Shown one piece after another: positions 46,539-50,040 of a DNA stretch of 64,000 nt. The notes beneath the pieces were generated by a model. It saw nothing but the letters and a program-made list of their open reading frames with translations, did no database searches and had not been told where the DNA came from. Every line of letters begins with the position of its first letter. Position 1 is the stretch's first letter. The stretch comes from a phage. Where the stretch lies: the sequence record PZ179883.1. One strand, 5' to 3'. The position numbers were made by a program, and so were the translations under genes.

Positions 46539-47102
46539 TTATTTACCTAGTTTACTTATTATAGCTTCTGCAGCAGCTTTTAGCTTAGATGCAGTGTTAA
46601 TACGATTTTTAATTTCAGTATACGCATCGCCAAGAACATCAAGGCTATCAGAATAAACACTTACACTATTGCGTTCGCTATTTGAAATAGAACCTTTAGT
46701 TTTGCGGTCAAAATCGGTGTACACGTCTTGAAGATCGCGGGCTGCCTTCTTTGCATCATCCAATGCATCAAGAGCTTTATTCAAAGCATTAACGTATTTT
46801 TTAGTGTCGAACATATTCTTAGAAATTTTAACAGGTGCGCGTTCAGGAGTAGCTAACACAGATTTAGGAACCTGAGCGCCAGATGCCAATTTCTTAGAAA
46901 TTTTGAAAAATGCTTTATTGAATTTATTTTCTTGACTCATTGTAAAAGAACTATTATCGATGTTGTACATTTCAATAGCTTTAGCTTTCCACTTAAGAAA
47001 ATCGCCGCGGTCTTTTGGGTCCAATTGGAAGAATACTTTAGTAAGATCTGCTTCAGATGGTAATTTTGCTGCTTCGGTTAAAAATTCGGCATAGGTTTTC
47101 AT
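46539..47102 (-). CDS. Internal protein with capsid-targeting leader (possibly IPIII-like)
   Basis: Begins MKTYAEFLTEA; 187 aa, close to T4 IPIII size. Confidence 0.55.
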   Translation of the reverse strand: MKTYAEFLTEAAKLPSEADLTKVFFQLDPKDRGDFLKWKAKAIEMYNIDNSSFTMSQENKFNKAFFKISKKLASGAQVPKSVLATPERAPVKISKNMFDTKKYVNALNKALDALDDAKKAARDLQDVYTDFDRKTKGSISNSERNSVSVYSDSLDVLGDAYTEIKNRINTASKLKAAAEAIISKLGK

Positions 47103-47191: not shown

Positions 47192-47222
47192 TAAAAAGCC
47201 CCAACCTTTCGGTCGGGGCTAA
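47192..47222 (-). terminator. Rho-independent terminator with GNRA loop, copy 1
   Basis: Minus strand AGCCCCGACC-GAAA-GGTTGGGGCTTTTT downstream of the internal-protein gene. Confidence 0.7.
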
Positions 47223-47227
47223 GAATG

Positions 47228-47701
47228 TCATTTGATTTGTTTAGCAGACCAAATGCGGTCTTTAATAATTTTTTGGATGTCTTCAACATACTCAAGAGAG
47301 TGAACATGTGGATTATCTTTGAAACTATAAGCACGGGCTAACTTTTGGCCTTCGGTTTTGATTACTAAAAGCTCTTTAAGGATAGCTTCATATTTAGCGA
47401 TAATTCCTTTAACGATATTTTTTTCTTGTGCCGCTTTAGGATCTGCTTTAGGAGCAGGTTTACCCGAAGCCTTTGCAAAAGCAGCGCCAGTAGCAACTAA
47501 ACTTTTCCAGGCCATACTAACTGCATTTCCCGTAAATCCTTCCGCTTTCATGTCGCGTGCAAACTGGAATCGCGATTCATCAGAAGCATCTTTATAGGAA
47601 TATTTACCCGCGGCAATGGCAGCTTTTGCAACAGCTTGAATTTCGGTGCTAGATGCTTCATTTAACACCGCTTCATTTAAAAATTGAGTATATGATTTCA
47701 T
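47228..47701 (-). CDS. Internal protein with capsid-targeting leader (start adjusted)
   Basis: Internal start MKSYTQFLNEA; ORF-track N-terminal extension reads through a terminator hairpin; late promoter TATAAATA upstream. Confidence 0.5.
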   Translation of the reverse strand: MKSYTQFLNEAVLNEASSTEIQAVAKAAIAAGKYSYKDASDESRFQFARDMKAEGFTGNAVSMAWKSLVATGAAFAKASGKPAPKADPKAAQEKNIVKGIIAKYEAILKELLVIKTEGQKLARAYSFKDNPHVHSLEYVEDIQKIIKDRIWSAKQIK

Positions 47702-47739: not shown

Positions 47740-47747
47740 TATTTATA
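47740..47747 (-). promoter_or_regulatory. Late promoter (TATAAATA) upstream of an internal-protein gene
   Basis: Plus-strand tatttata about 35 nt upstream of the MKSYTQFLNEA start. Confidence 0.55.
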
Positions 47748-47750
47748 CCA

Positions 47751-47781
47751 AAAAGCCCCAACCTTTCGGTCGGGGCTAAGC
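47751..47781 (-). terminator. Rho-independent terminator, identical copy 2
   Basis: Same 31 bp sequence, downstream of the stable RNA/tRNA region. Confidence 0.7.
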
Positions 47782-47825
47782 CTTGCGGCAACCTTGTCGG
47801 GGTTCCACCTGCTAAGGCAAGTGTT

Positions 47826-48083
47826 TGTACGAAACGCCGGGATTCGAACCCGGTTATTAAGTAGTTGACGCTACTCAATATTTTTAAAAGGCCATATCTC
47901 GACCATATCCGAACGTTCCGTCAAAAACGCTACTCGGCTTACGGCAAAGATATTTCCTCGAATCGATAATTCGGTGCGCCGTTTCTGCTGTGATAGTAAA
48001 GAGCCAGAACACAGTAAAACTGTGGGAGGAAACTATACTCCAGGGAACATCAGTCCGACGACTTACCGGTAGCGACCCGGTTT
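47826..48083 (-). ncRNA. Putative stable small RNA region with a tRNA-like 3-prime module
   Basis: Minus strand has a canonical T-arm (CCGGG-TTCGAAT-CCCGG) and a 5 bp stem/7 nt loop, but no matching 5-prime acceptor strand; boundaries uncertain. Confidence 0.3.
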
Positions 48084-48084
48084 C

Positions 48085-48435
48085 TTAATATTCTTTTAAA
48101 GAATCAATATATTCACGGCGTTTACGCCACAAATCAATTGCTTCATACGCGGATTCAGCATTTCGAATTAGCCGGCATTTATGTAAAGACTTATGATTTT
48201 GATATTGTGTAGATAACGGAATTGTATCTAAAAGGTCTTTACGATCAAAATATTCGTAACCATCTAAACCAAATGAACGATTTTTGAGAAATTGCCAATG
48301 ACCATATTCGTTTTCGACATAAACATAATCTGCATGCTGATAAAGCAAATTAATTACACGTTCAGAAATAACAGTATCATTATGATTAAAATAGAATGTT
48401 AAATCATGAACTACTAAATAAACATTACCTTTCAT
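48085..48435 (-). CDS. Hypothetical protein embedded in the tRNA/stable RNA region
   Basis: 116 aa ORF between the tRNA-Arg gene and the stable RNA region. Confidence 0.4.
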   Translation of the reverse strand: MKGNVYLVVHDLTFYFNHNDTVISERVINLLYQHADYVYVENEYGHWQFLKNRSFGLDGYEYFDRKDLLDTIPLSTQYQNHKSLHKCRLIRNAESAYEAIDLWRKRREYIDSLKEY

Positions 48436-48451: not shown

Positions 48452-48527
48452 TGGTCGAGGCAGTAGGGATCGAACCTACGACCTAGGACTTAGAAGGTCC
48501 TTGCTCTTCCTTCTGAGCTATGCCCCG
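48452..48527 (-). tRNA. tRNA-Arg (anticodon UCU), CCA encoded
   Basis: Hand-folded cloverleaf: acceptor CGGGGCA, anticodon loop CUUCUAA, T-arm GTAGG-TTCGATC-CCTAC. Confidence 0.8.
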
Positions 48528-48530
48528 TAA

Positions 48531-48612
48531 TTGGGGTGACCGATGGGAGTCGAACCCATGACTACGAGAATCACAATCACAATCTCGAGTTCTACCAACT
48601 GAACTACGGCCA
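48531..48612 (-). tRNA. Atypical tRNA-like gene: His-type (GUG) with a 6 nt tandem duplication giving a 13 nt anticodon loop; possible pseudogene
   Basis: Canonical acceptor, D- and T-arms and C73 discriminator; anticodon stem CGAGA/TCTCG encloses TTGTGATTGTGAT instead of 7 nt. Confidence 0.5.
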
Positions 48613-48727
48613 CATTAATACCTACTCCAACAATCAAGATGTCTTCACACGAAATTAAGAGAAGAGTGATCAGTTCAACCCCTATAATCGCGTCAAGTAG
48701 ATATTAATGTGACAGTTGTCACAAATT

Positions 48728-48802
48728 TGGCGGACGTGATAGGATTCGAACCTATAACCAATCGCTTAACAGGCGATCGCTCTGCCATTGAGCTACACAT
48801 CC
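48728..48802 (-). tRNA. tRNA-Asn (anticodon GUU), CCA encoded
   Basis: Hand-folded: anticodon stem ATCGC/GCGAT, loop CUGUUAA, T-arm ATAGG-TTCGAAT-CCTAT. Confidence 0.75.
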
Positions 48803-48806
48803 AAAT

Positions 48807-48894
48807 TGGTGGGGAGTGGTGGAGTCGAACCACCCGAGTCGCAATGACAATGGATTTACAGTCCACACCGCTACCTCTACGGGATAACTCCCCA
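48807..48894 (-). tRNA. tRNA-Tyr (anticodon GUA), class II with long variable arm
   Basis: 88 nt; anticodon loop CUGUAAA; T-arm GGTGG-TTCGACT-CCACC. Confidence 0.75.
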
Positions 48895-48902
48895 AATTAA
48901 TT

Positions 48903-48977
48903 TGGTGGCCCTGGGTGGAATTGAACCACCATCTGGCGATTATGAGTCGCTTGCTTGAACCTTCCAGCTACAGGGCC
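48903..48977 (-). tRNA. tRNA with CAU anticodon (Ile2/lysidine-type or elongator Met)
   Basis: Anticodon loop CUCAUAA; T-arm GGTGG-TTCAATT-CCACC; T4 tRNA-Ile equivalent by position. Confidence 0.7.
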
Positions 48978-48978
48978 T

Positions 48979-49054
48979 TGGTGCTGATTGACGGAATCGA
49001 ACCGCCGACCTTCTCATTACAAGTGAGTTGCTCTACCTACTGAGCTAAATCAGC
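48979..49054 (-). tRNA. tRNA-Thr (anticodon UGU)
   Basis: Anticodon loop CUUGUAA; acceptor GCTGATT/AATCAGC; CCA encoded. Confidence 0.8.
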
Positions 49055-49059
49055 AAAAC

Positions 49060-49149
49060 TGGCGGAGGCGATAGGATTTGAACCTATGAGTCGCCGGAGC
49101 GACTGCCGGTTTTCAAGACCGGTGCATTAAACCACTCTGCCACGCCTCC
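49060..49149 (-). tRNA. tRNA-Ser (anticodon UGA), class II
   Basis: 90 nt; anticodon stem CCGGT/ACCGG, loop CUUGAAA; long variable arm. Confidence 0.8.
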
Positions 49150-49151
49150 AG

Positions 49152-49225
49152 TCTCCGTGGCAGGATTTGAACCTACGACATTCTGCTCCCAAAGCAGACG
49201 CTCTACCAAACTGAGCTACACGGAG
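49152..49225 (-). tRNA. tRNA-Pro (anticodon UGG), 3-prime CCA not encoded
   Basis: Anticodon loop UUUGGGA; abuts tRNA-Ser, like the T4 Pro-Ser dimeric precursor. Confidence 0.8.
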
Positions 49226-49235
49226 TAAATTAAAT

Positions 49236-49309
<74 letters not shown>

Positions 49310-49314
49310 AAATT

Positions 49315-49401
49315 TGGTGCGAGAAGTGGGACTCGAACCCACAAGGAAATCATTCCGCAGCATTTTAAGTGCTGTGCCTTTACCAATTTGACCATTCTCG
49401 C
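49315..49401 (-). tRNA. tRNA-Leu (anticodon UAA), class II
   Basis: 87 nt; anticodon loop CUUAAAA; T-arm GTGGG-TTCGAGT-CCCAC; CCA encoded. Confidence 0.8.
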
Positions 49402-49407
49402 TCTATA

Positions 49408-50040
49408 TTATTTATTACGTGAAAAAGATTGTTCTATCAATTCTGGACACTTTCGTTCTATCCATTTTCTAGCTTTTTGTGGGCTTATACCTATTATTTT
49501 AGCAGCTTTACTAACCCATCCAAATTTAGAATAATCGATTTTAACTAATTCTTCGTAAATTTCATCAGTTAAAATCTTTTCATTAATATTTACCAGTAAA
49601 TGATATAATTTATTATCATTAGCAATTTTAATGAATCTTTTATAGTTTCCGCCTTTACTTAAACCTAATGAAGTAATTGCAGATGATATAGTAGCCGAAT
49701 TTAATAATGCGTTTAAAATTTCTTCATCACTAACATTATAACGCTTTTTATTATTTTTAATATTTTTACCAGCAAAAGTATCAGTTTGCGAATGGCAATT
49801 TGGACATAATAATCTTAAATTTGATTTAAGATGATTTTTGTTATTTCCATCAATATGGTCTAATTGCAGAACAATATGCTTATTTTGCCATTTTGAAATT
49901 TTACAAATTGCACACTCATATGGAAAAATATTTTCTTTTATTATTTTGTCTTTCAGCTTTCCTGTACTAAAATTTGGATGTTTTCCTTCAAAAATTTCAG
50001 CTAATTTAGTATCCATAATATAATTCCCAATTATTAACAA
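49408..50040 (-). mobile_element. HNH homing endonuclease
   Basis: 210 aa; LQLDHIDGNNKNHLKSNLRLLCPNCHSQTD is an HNH motif with zinc-binding cysteines; helix-turn-helix-like C-terminus; ends 6 nt from tRNA-Leu. Confidence 0.7.

Follow-up and report, generated by a model that had tools for sequence, protein, structure and literature searches.

Probable Orthologs of the T4 Small Stable RNAs rnaC and rnaD in a Tequatrovirus tRNA Locus and a Predicted tRNA-Shaped Fold for rnaC

Introduction

The question raised by this locus is what is encoded between the tRNA cluster of a T4-like phage and the terminator that closes the same transcription unit. The DNA analyzed is a stretch of 64,000 nucleotides from a phage (PZ179883.1), referred to here as the window. 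The phage is a Tequatrovirus (T4-like); a 421-nt query around the region of interest matches 810 phage records, almost all of them Tequatrovirus, and is 100% identical to Escherichia phages YUEEL01, C2-3, MLP2, and others. A sequence-only reading had described the region as stable-RNA-like, with a tRNA-like module at its 3' end, and had noted that T4 encodes two small stable RNAs at the corresponding position. The roles of these T4 RNAs, rnaC and rnaD, are still listed as unknown (PMC3014915, PMC9697503, PMC12685909). The genome feature itself is ordinary: it is annotated in T4, near-identical copies are present in hundreds of T4-like phages, and finding it here is a rediscovery of annotated T4 genes. 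The comparative model described below, which comprises an acceptor stem, a junction, a pairing between loops, a U-N-C-A end, and placement in tRNA slots, makes the function of these RNAs experimentally approachable.

Organization of the Locus

A cluster of ten tRNA genes (48452-49401, minus strand; identified with ARAGORN and Rfam) lies upstream of the rnaD and rnaC sequences. The sequence-only reading had placed the region between this cluster and a pair of terminators. The cluster is indeed upstream, but it does not abut the region, as a 116-aa ORF (48085-48435, from the ORF list) separates the two RNAs from tRNA-Arg. Phage T2L carries tRNA-Met, -Tyr, -Asn, and -Arg together with two ORFs (SegB paper, PMC2330249), and the primer used there for the T2L 'trna.2' ORF closely fits the beginning of the window ORF (48435), differing at one nucleotide. 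The local gene order is that of T2L and not that of T4, with the 116-aa ORF being of the T2L trna.2 type. The stop codon of this ORF overlaps the conserved AAGAA leader of rnaD.

The two RNAs follow on the minus strand. The rnaD sequence (~116 nt, 47973..48088) was delimited by alignment to T4 rnaD (L001 2554-2672), BLAST, and a covariance model (R2), and the rnaC sequence (47826..47965) runs from the acceptor nucleotide C1 to the conserved ..U-ACA, with 47828-47966 as the equivalent of the T4 annotation. Between them lies the spacer GAAUUAU (47966..47972, minus strand), which was placed by its position relative to the acceptor stem and is a putative rnaC leader removed by RNase P. Directly 3' of rnaC, folding reveals the hairpin CACUUGC-CUUA-GCAGGUG (47806..47823, minus strand), which is kept in T4 and in Dhakavirus IME08. 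An intrinsic terminator, AGCCCCGACC-GAAA-GGUUGGGGCU (47754..47777, minus strand), ends the tRNA/rnaD/rnaC transcription unit. A second, identical copy of this GAAA-loop terminator is found at 47220..47197. The identity of the two copies and their GNRA (GAAA) loops (47777..47754 and 47220..47197) are as the sequence-only reading had described them, but the copies are not adjacent, since the second lies 3' of the next gene, which is located between them.

Relationship to the T4 Species 1 and Species 2 RNAs

The T4 record NC_000866 annotates rnaC ('small, stable RNA; species 1 RNA') and rnaD ('species 2 RNA') directly after tRNA-Arg. Positions 48100..47740 of the window (minus strand) align collinearly with the T4 rnaD-rnaC stretch, up to and including the shared hairpins and terminator. 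The order of features is likewise that of T4: rnaD is located directly 5' of rnaC within the tRNA transcription unit, and rnaC shares the strand of rnaD and the tRNA cluster, coming after both and before the hairpin and terminator.

The agreement is closest for rnaC. T4 rnaC (NC_000866 70908-71046) has the same neighbors, with rnaD upstream and a hairpin and GAAA-loop terminator downstream, and it is one substitution apart from the window sequence (1/~139; T4 records match over 141 nt at 99.3% identity, E = 1e-64), such that the fold and loop-loop pairing described below hold equally for T4 itself. BLAST with rnaC returns 751 phage records (E = 3e-66), and hundreds of Tequatrovirus genomes carry copies that are at least 95% identical. 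For rnaD, BLAST returns 747 phage records. The T4 sequence aligns to 96% of this query with ~79% identity; it departs from the window rnaD in the central arm, while the 5' 46 nt and the 3' 26 nt agree almost completely. T4 rnaD (NC_000866 71053-71171) and the window rnaD are identical in the 5' leader, in the 5' hairpin, in the closing helix, and in the motifs of the internal loop. The differences are that T4 rnaD abuts tRNA-Arg, whereas the window rnaD comes after the trna.2-type ORF, and that the 3' end of rnaD reads ACCG in the window versus ACCA in T4.

The sequence-only reading had suggested an alignment with the T4 species 1 and 2 RNA genes as a check on its placement of the region, and this alignment (99.3% identity for rnaC, ~79% for rnaD) runs collinearly along 48088..47826 through rnaD, then rnaC, and on through the same downstream hairpins and terminator. 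The match is with annotated T4 genes, and therefore that interpretation was correct. It is highly likely that 48088..47826 of the minus strand carries orthologs of T4 rnaD and rnaC, with transcription, processing, and structures as set out in the following sections.

Comparative Structure of rnaC

The fold of rnaC was derived by comparison of homologs from Tequatrovirus, Gaprivervirus, Kanagawavirus, Karamvirus, Winklervirus, Tegunavirus, Gelderlandvirus, Marfavirus, Mosugukvirus, a Moon-like contig, and Erwinia and Citrobacter phages. RNAalifold, applied to a plain MAFFT alignment of 20 distinct rnaC sequences, returns a four-way junction. Its helices are an acceptor stem, a long arm beginning with AGG/CCU, a hairpin of 10 bp, and a T-arm. 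The consensus pairs are formed in 93.8% of the cells of this alignment, compared to 36-51% when the partners are slid, and compensatory changes occur in 23 of the 45 pairs. The observed values are attained in 0 of 500 shuffles, a significance that is overstated because the homologs are related to one another. A covariance model (R1) built from the 20-sequence alignment finds one copy in the window, with a score of 167.6 bits. When 27 distinct homologs, which represent at least 10 phage genera, are aligned to R1, 93.8% of cells are paired and 27/45 pairs show compensatory changes; this alignment is fitted to R1 and therefore favors the R1 structure. Among the alignments used, A6 and A7 were fitted to the models and hence favor the structures, and only A3 is independent. 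The minimum free energy of the window rnaC has a z-score of -3.93 relative to shuffled sequences. Furthermore, genuine tRNAs match R1 weakly (12-23 bits) but along their full length, which points to a frame shared by rnaC and tRNA.

The acceptor stem is formed by the two ends of the molecule. The sequence-only reading had seen no 5' acceptor strand; such a strand does exist, as CGAUUCG (47959..47965, minus strand; 47965..47959 in the direction of transcription) pairs with CGUUUCG at 47836..47830, its partner ~125 nt downstream. The alignment places this 3' strand, the discriminator U (47829), and the terminal ACA at 47826..47836 (minus strand). In the window the stem pairs are C-G, G-C, A-U, U.U, U.U, C-G, and G-C (5/7 paired). 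The stem is 7/7 paired in Tegunavirus (CGGUCCG/CGGACUG, with U-A and C-G at positions 4 and 5) and in Pectobacterium phage PM2, a Mosugukvirus (AGGUUCG/CGAAUCU, with U-A at both of these positions). Position 3:70 is A-U in the window and G-C in other genera, a compensatory difference. The acceptor stem is followed by U-N-C-A in 27/27 homologs, where N is A in the T4-type phages (UACA), U in Tegunavirus, and C in Marfavirus and PM2; the last two therefore have an encoded U73-CCA end.

The place of the D-arm is taken by a long arm, P2, of ~60-70 nt (47889..47958, minus strand), which starts with AGG/CCU and contains 19 nested pairs, of which the majority show compensatory changes. In Gelderlandvirus, Marfavirus, and some Kanagawavirus the stem sequence of P2 is another one and the fold is the same, and in PM2 a compensatory UGG/CCA replaces AGG/CCU at the base. 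The next hairpin, P3 (47855..47880, minus strand), has 10 bp and a 6-nt loop, and compensatory changes occur in 8/10 of its stem pairs. The T-arm, CCGGG-UUCGAAU-CCCGG (47837..47853, minus strand), can be read directly from the sequence, and its stem covaries from G-C to U-A. The earlier report of a canonical T-arm on the minus strand (47853..47837) is thus supported by the alignments. In Kanagawavirus and Winklervirus the T-loop has the non-canonical sequence UGCAUGC, and for this reason the tRNA-like elbow may be dispensable for rnaC.

Taken as a whole, the comparison predicts that rnaC is a complete tRNA-shaped RNA with a cloverleaf-like four-way junction closed by the acceptor stem. The description of a tRNA-like 3' module was accordingly right as to the T-arm but understated the case, because the whole of rnaC appears tRNA-shaped and is closed by an acceptor stem from its 5' and 3' ends. 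The same data bear on the idea that rnaC and rnaD are decaying tRNA-derived relics, that is, pseudogenes without selected function. The tRNA-like pieces, their location inside tRNA clusters, and the loss of rnaC from some phages such as IME08 would fit a relic, as would the 50 years that have passed without a function being found. Relics are nevertheless very improbable, as the sequence is at least 95% identical over hundreds of Tequatrovirus genomes, 27/45 pairs are kept by compensatory changes across at least 10 genera, and the loops are invariant or covary with each other.

Pairing between the Loops of rnaC

The apical loop of P2, UUGACG (47919..47924, minus strand), is the exact reverse complement of 47870..47865, which forms the loop of P3, CGUCAA (47865..47870, minus strand). 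The complementarity is bounded on both sides by the hairpin stems. The P3 loop is invariant except in two lineages, and in both the loops change together: Tegunavirus has the pair UUGAUG/CAUCAA, and Marfavirus has UUGGCG/CGCCAA. Each lineage has changed both partners independently, and at a different loop position from the other; overall, the kissing helix is 99-100% paired. Homologs of the Gelderlandvirus and KLB31 types have an entirely different long-arm stem and the same UUGACG loop, and PM2 retains 4/6 of the loop-loop pairs. Results from this comparison indicate a 6-bp kissing interaction between the two rnaC loops that would close the anticodon side of the molecule. The complementarity could equally mean dimerization between two molecules, as the covariation fits this arrangement equally well. 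TTGACG was also considered as a -35 promoter hexamer and was rejected because there is no -10 partner and because the changes in the two loops are paired, which argues for RNA pairing. The pairing is not mentioned in the literature that was searched, a search that did not extend to the T4 papers of the 1970s-80s, and newness is not claimed.

Comparative Structure of rnaD

RNAalifold on nine rnaD sequences from Tequatrovirus, Gaprivervirus, and Dhakavirus yields a 5' hairpin, an invariant G+C-rich closing helix, an internal loop, and an apical arm. Covariance model R2, built from these nine sequences, scores the window rnaD at 118.9 bits and weaker relatives at 29-37 bits (Marfavirus), 35 bits (the Moon-like contig), and 25-29 bits (Karamvirus-type loci); the match in Kanagawavirus is marginal (16 bits, E about 0.2). 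In an alignment of 18 rnaD sequences, 91.8% of cells are paired and 17/30 pairs show compensatory changes. The structure of rnaD is taken from this comparison, as the single-sequence fold of the window rnaD is no more stable than those of shuffled sequences (z = -0.14).

The 5' hairpin, ACCGG-GUCGCUA-CCGGU (48065..48081, minus strand), has 5 bp and a 7-nt loop, follows the conserved leader AAGAA, and is supported by covariation. All 5/5 of its pairs covary across genera, with versions such as GCCGG/CCGGC, UCAGAA/UUCUGA, UCCAUGA/UCAUGGA, and GCGAG..CUCGC. The 5 bp stem and 7 nt loop that the sequence-only reading had listed together with the T-arm is this element (48081..48065), which is separate from the T-arm and located inside rnaD. 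The closing helix, identified with RNAalifold, is formed by GU-CGUCG (48056..48062, minus strand) and its partner CGGCGCAC (CGGCG-C-AC; 47974..47981, minus strand), and it is invariant in 17/18 sequences, with CGUCC/GGGCG in L043 as the sole, compensatory exception. The conserved internal loop includes the motif GUUCCCUG (48041..48048, minus strand), which has the form (G/A)(U/A)UCCCUG from Tequatrovirus to Marfavirus and Karamvirus, and the sequence UCACAGC. Consensus pairing of GUUCCCUG is limited to GUU-AGC (columns 91-93/186-188) and UG-CA (97-98/183-184), and its CCC is unpaired. The apical arm is hypervariable in sequence between phages, with pairing kept. A tRNA-like fold with acceptor and T-arm was looked for in rnaD and none was found. 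Marfavirus and Kanagawavirus rnaD contain a D-arm-like string, UAGCCCAGAUGGAUGCGCA, inside the 5' hairpin, and no cloverleaf could be folded from it.

Both RNAs have covariation-supported folds across their homologs, and for rnaC the signal is well above what chance would give (E = 3e-66, 167.6 bits, z -3.93).

Distribution, Placement, and Annotation

In several other groups rnaC is located between two tRNA genes, at ordinary tRNA spacing. This is the case in Karamvirus, Winklervirus, Tegunavirus, Gelderlandvirus, Kanagawavirus, Mosugukvirus, and Erwinia phages. At one such locus (L092) tRNA-Trp ends at 322, the R1 match spans 329-475, and tRNA-Gly starts at 477. The occupation of tRNA slots at tRNA spacing suggests that rnaC is handled as one more tRNA of the cluster. 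In Dhakavirus IME08 rnaD is present, the rnaC cassette is precisely absent (an indel), and the CACUUGC-CUUA-GCAGGUG hairpin comes directly after rnaD. The precision of this absence indicates that rnaC is a separable module.

This variation in placement informs an alternative in which the two RNAs are a cis-acting tail of the tRNA operon, providing signals for processing, stability, and termination (entry sites for RNase P, RNase E, and RNase III, or protection from 3' exonucleases), with the RNAs themselves as by-products that have no function in trans. The T4-type location suits this idea, since there the RNAs come last in the transcription unit, just ahead of the conserved hairpins and terminator; so do the processing of the RNAs from a tRNA precursor and the dispensability of the region in the laboratory (PMC2330249). 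Other genera, however, carry rnaC in the middle of the cluster and not at its end, the loops, loop-loop pairing, and long arm are conserved well past the needs of a processing site, and both RNAs accumulate stably in T4 (PMC9697503). Consequently, a purely cis-acting role is considered unlikely.

An Infernal/Rfam scan had been named in the sequence-only reading as a way to recognize these RNAs, and no recognition came from it: with Rfam 15, neither rnaC nor rnaD matches a family in 47826-48088 (47826-48088 at the gathering threshold, and likewise at permissive thresholds). The only permissive match is to tRNA-Sec, at 17 bits and E = 3.1 versus a gathering score of 47, which is at chance level. 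Rfam searches with the rnaC homologs of five other phages gave no match even at E <= 1, and ARAGORN calls neither a tRNA nor a tmRNA in the rnaD/rnaC region. A pattern for the 3' half of rnaC had no occurrence in 185,579 bacterial and archaeal species genomes, and in IMG/VR it occurred in T4-like contigs only. A first pattern scan of viral contigs gave 76 loci, of which only about 15 are real, and a metagenome scan gave 1 real copy (L110, of the Marfavirus type) among 80 readable loci. As judged from these searches, rnaC and rnaD appear to be restricted to enterobacterial T4-like phages.

In many GenBank records a 'hypothetical protein' CDS covers these RNAs, or the 3' half of rnaC is labelled tRNA-Lys or tRNA-Phe. 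The possibility that small proteins are encoded, as such records imply, draws on short ORFs of 32-42 aa that overlap the region and on the CDS annotations in several records. However, these ORFs lack conservation and have GTG or TTG as start codons, and homologs contain indels of 1-2 nt; substitutions are paired across helices and do not follow codon position, and the T4 products are known RNAs. Coding is the most improbable of the explanations considered here. The locus thus represents an annotation gap, with two RNAs that have no Rfam family, are missed by tRNA finders, and are mislabelled in GenBank.

Resemblance to tRNA and tRNA Mimics

In several respects rnaC resembles tRNA (RF00005). 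Its ends come together in an acceptor stem, although only 5/7 positions pair in the window, compared to 7/7 in Tegunavirus and PM2; its T-stem of 5 bp carries the loop UUCGAAU; NCA follows the discriminator; four helices meet in one junction; and the gene occupies tRNA slots. The T-arm has the tRNA dimensions, with 5 bp and a 7-nt loop of the UUCRANY type. The other two arms depart from tRNA. Where tRNA has a D-arm with 3-4 bp and a loop of 7-11 nt, rnaC has the ~60-70-nt arm at 47958..47889. Where tRNA presents its anticodon on an arm of 5 bp with a 7-nt loop, rnaC has P3, with a stem of 10 bp and a 6-nt loop whose complement is the other loop of the molecule. The linkers are also reversed relative to tRNA, with ~8-10 nt separating arms 2 and 3 and a single nucleotide preceding the T-arm. 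Unlike tRNA, rnaC escapes ARAGORN and the RF00005 gathering score.

The tRNA-like domain of tmRNA is similarly assembled from an acceptor stem and T-arm contributed by two ends, with the remainder occupied by other structure with tertiary pairings. In contrast to tmRNA, rnaC has no conserved G3.U70, no tag reading frame, a length of ~140 versus ~360 nt, and no ARAGORN or Rfam match. Position 3:70, where tmRNA carries its alanine identity, is G.U only in PM2 and is A-U in the window.

The likeness to tmRNA raises the possibility that rnaC is a chargeable adaptor, which would be trimmed, provided with CCA, and aminoacylated for a non-decoding delivery, either as in tmRNA or as a transferase substrate. 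A complete acceptor/T-arm minihelix, an invariant discriminator U, and a conserved ..CA are what such an adaptor would need, CCA is encoded in Marfavirus and PM2, and the G3.U70 of PM2 is the alanine identity pair. This pair is confined to the one lineage, however, with G-C or A-U at 3:70 elsewhere, and most acceptor stems contain two U.U mismatches. The combination of C1-G72 with U73 is not known to fit any E. coli identity set, which also counts against charging. Furthermore, a tag-like ORF is absent, and ARAGORN calls no tmRNA. A chargeable adaptor is therefore regarded as improbable, to a greater degree than the cis-acting tail.

Other RNAs combine part of a tRNA shape with a non-decoding role. 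Enzymes of tRNA metabolism act on YrlA (bacterial, Y RNA-like), mascRNA, and the tRNA-like structures of plant viruses. YrlA carries its tRNA-like part internally and uses its ends for a Ro-binding stem, whereas the ends of rnaC make up the acceptor stem. The relation of rnaC to YrlA and the tRNA mimics is one of functional analogy only, and there is no significant Rfam match.

Processing and Possible Function

In T4, RNase P cleaves a dimeric precursor, p2Sp1, to yield the species 1 and species 2 RNAs, and the sequence 3' of species 1 contains an RNase III site. The T4 primary transcript of ~1.75 kb begins 5' of the tRNA cluster and terminates beyond species I, and the T4 tRNA/species region is non-essential (PMC2330249). 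T4 RNAC and RNAD are discrete, stable RNAs of the late class that have been validated by Northern blot (PMC9697503). By analogy, rnaD and rnaC of the window would be transcribed as the tail of the tRNA-cluster transcript, which would stop at the terminator at 47777..47754, and both RNAs would be cut out by the tRNA-processing machinery of the host. RNase P would be expected to release the 5' end of rnaC, as is known from T4, because the stack of acceptor stem and T-arm is tRNA-like. The 3' end would be trimmed to, or rebuilt as, NCA/CCA.

The mature rnaC would then consist of a 7-position acceptor stem stacked on the T-arm and followed by the discriminator U and (A/C/U)CA, with the kissing loops locking the anticodon side, such that only the top half of a tRNA is presented. 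If UUGACG and CGUCAA are paired, the anticodon side is closed and rnaC therefore could not decode. The rnaD RNA would be a separate module, with its 5' hairpin and a closing helix around the conserved internal loop and hypervariable apical arm.

Tentatively, it is proposed that rnaC is a mimic of the tRNA top half that binds or titrates a factor recognizing the acceptor and T-arm (RNase P, the CCA-adding enzyme, or a tRNA-directed defense toxin), and that rnaC and rnaD may be accessory RNAs for host range or counter-defense. This reading is consistent with the dispensability of the region, with its presence/absence polymorphism, with the hypervariable arm of rnaD, and with the report that a single convergent SNP in rnaD accompanied the adaptation of a T4-like phage to a semi-permissive host (BW-1; PMC12685909). 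A more specific and slightly more doubtful version is that rnaC with its locked anticodon side might be a decoy or sponge engaging a host factor involved in sensing or attacking the ends of tRNA, such as a defense toxin directed at the acceptor end or the RNase P/CCA-adding machinery, with rnaC and rnaD again as possible counter-defense or host-range RNAs. If the decoy reading is true, it would provide a function for two RNAs that have been without one since the 1970s, and it would define a second class of tRNA-island cargo besides replacement tRNAs. The decoy idea is based on shape and genomic context; the acceptor stem in the window has two U.U pairs, and the 3' end is ACA and not CCA. The convergent rnaD SNP seen in host adaptation hints at an effect of the locus on host range (PMC12685909).

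Distribution and Annotation of rnaC and rnaD

Among the GenBank records matched by BLAST, the genes for rnaC and rnaD, the T4 species 1 and species 2 RNAs and their orthologs, are annotated as such only in T4 and some of the RB phages, and in many T4-like genomes both are overlaid by a "hypothetical protein" CDS. The 3′ half of rnaC has also been mislabelled, as tRNA-Lys in phage G4507 and as tRNA-Phe in KKP_3262. Both RNAs are present in Gaprivervirus VR7 and in a VR25-like contig. Dhakavirus IME08 precisely lacks a 148-nt rnaC cassette (UUAUCG...GUACAAA), and the hairpin and terminator that follow rnaC elsewhere stand immediately 3′ of rnaD (L007, the IME08 locus, 1495-1700).

The rnaD-like RNA of Marfavirus carries an insertion of approximately 45 nt in its 5′ hairpin (loci L084-L086, about 990-1040), within which lies the D-arm-like string UAGCCCAGAUGGAUGCGCA. 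The same string is found upstream of the rnaD core in Kanagawavirus (L002 1150-1180), and its occurrence in both genera hints at a tRNA-derived origin. Unannotated tRNA-like sequences are also present in the tRNA clusters of Kanagawavirus IME523, where a T-arm stretch (GUAGG-UUCGAGC-CCUAU) accompanied by a long insertion follows rnaC (L002 1650-1790), and of a Moon-like contig, where 120 nt on the minus strand (L043 1071-1190) match the rnaC covariance model weakly (27.7 bits).

The tRNA Cluster and Its Borders

All features described below lie on the minus strand. Between tRNA-Arg and rnaD, the window encodes a 116-aa ORF (48085-48435; phrog_3355) that gives no match in Pfam and whose UAA stop codon shares nucleotides with the conserved leader (AAGAA) of rnaD. 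T4 has nothing at this junction, whereas the "trna.2" ORF of T2L is the counterpart of the window ORF. At the head of the cluster, an HNH homing-endonuclease ORF (49408-50040; phrog_14736, E = 6e-124) is located immediately upstream of tRNA-Leu, while T4 carries the GIY-YIG endonuclease SegB within its cluster.

Within the cluster, a tRNA-His (GUG) left unnamed by ARAGORN (48532-48613) contains a 6-nt tandem duplication (UUGUGA-UUGUGA-U) that enlarges its anticodon loop to 13 nt; the gene in related phages is 6 nt shorter and is annotated as tRNA-His. Just a single entry of the phage collection reaches 99% identity, so the duplication is either a private change, probably inactivating, or a sequencing variant. 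The 114-nt spacer between this variant and tRNA-Asn (48614-48727) contains no tRNA, Rfam match or convincing ORF; a "trna.1" ORF has been reported in the equivalent interval of T2L (PMC2330249).

Genes and Signals Downstream of rnaC

Two tandem paralogous genes, both assigned to phrog_2280, are located downstream of rnaC (47228-47701 and 46539-47102). Identical 24-nt GAAA-loop terminators stand ahead of the first gene (47754-47777) and between the two (47197-47220), and a T4 late-promoter box, TATAAATA (47740-47747), lies right behind the first terminator.
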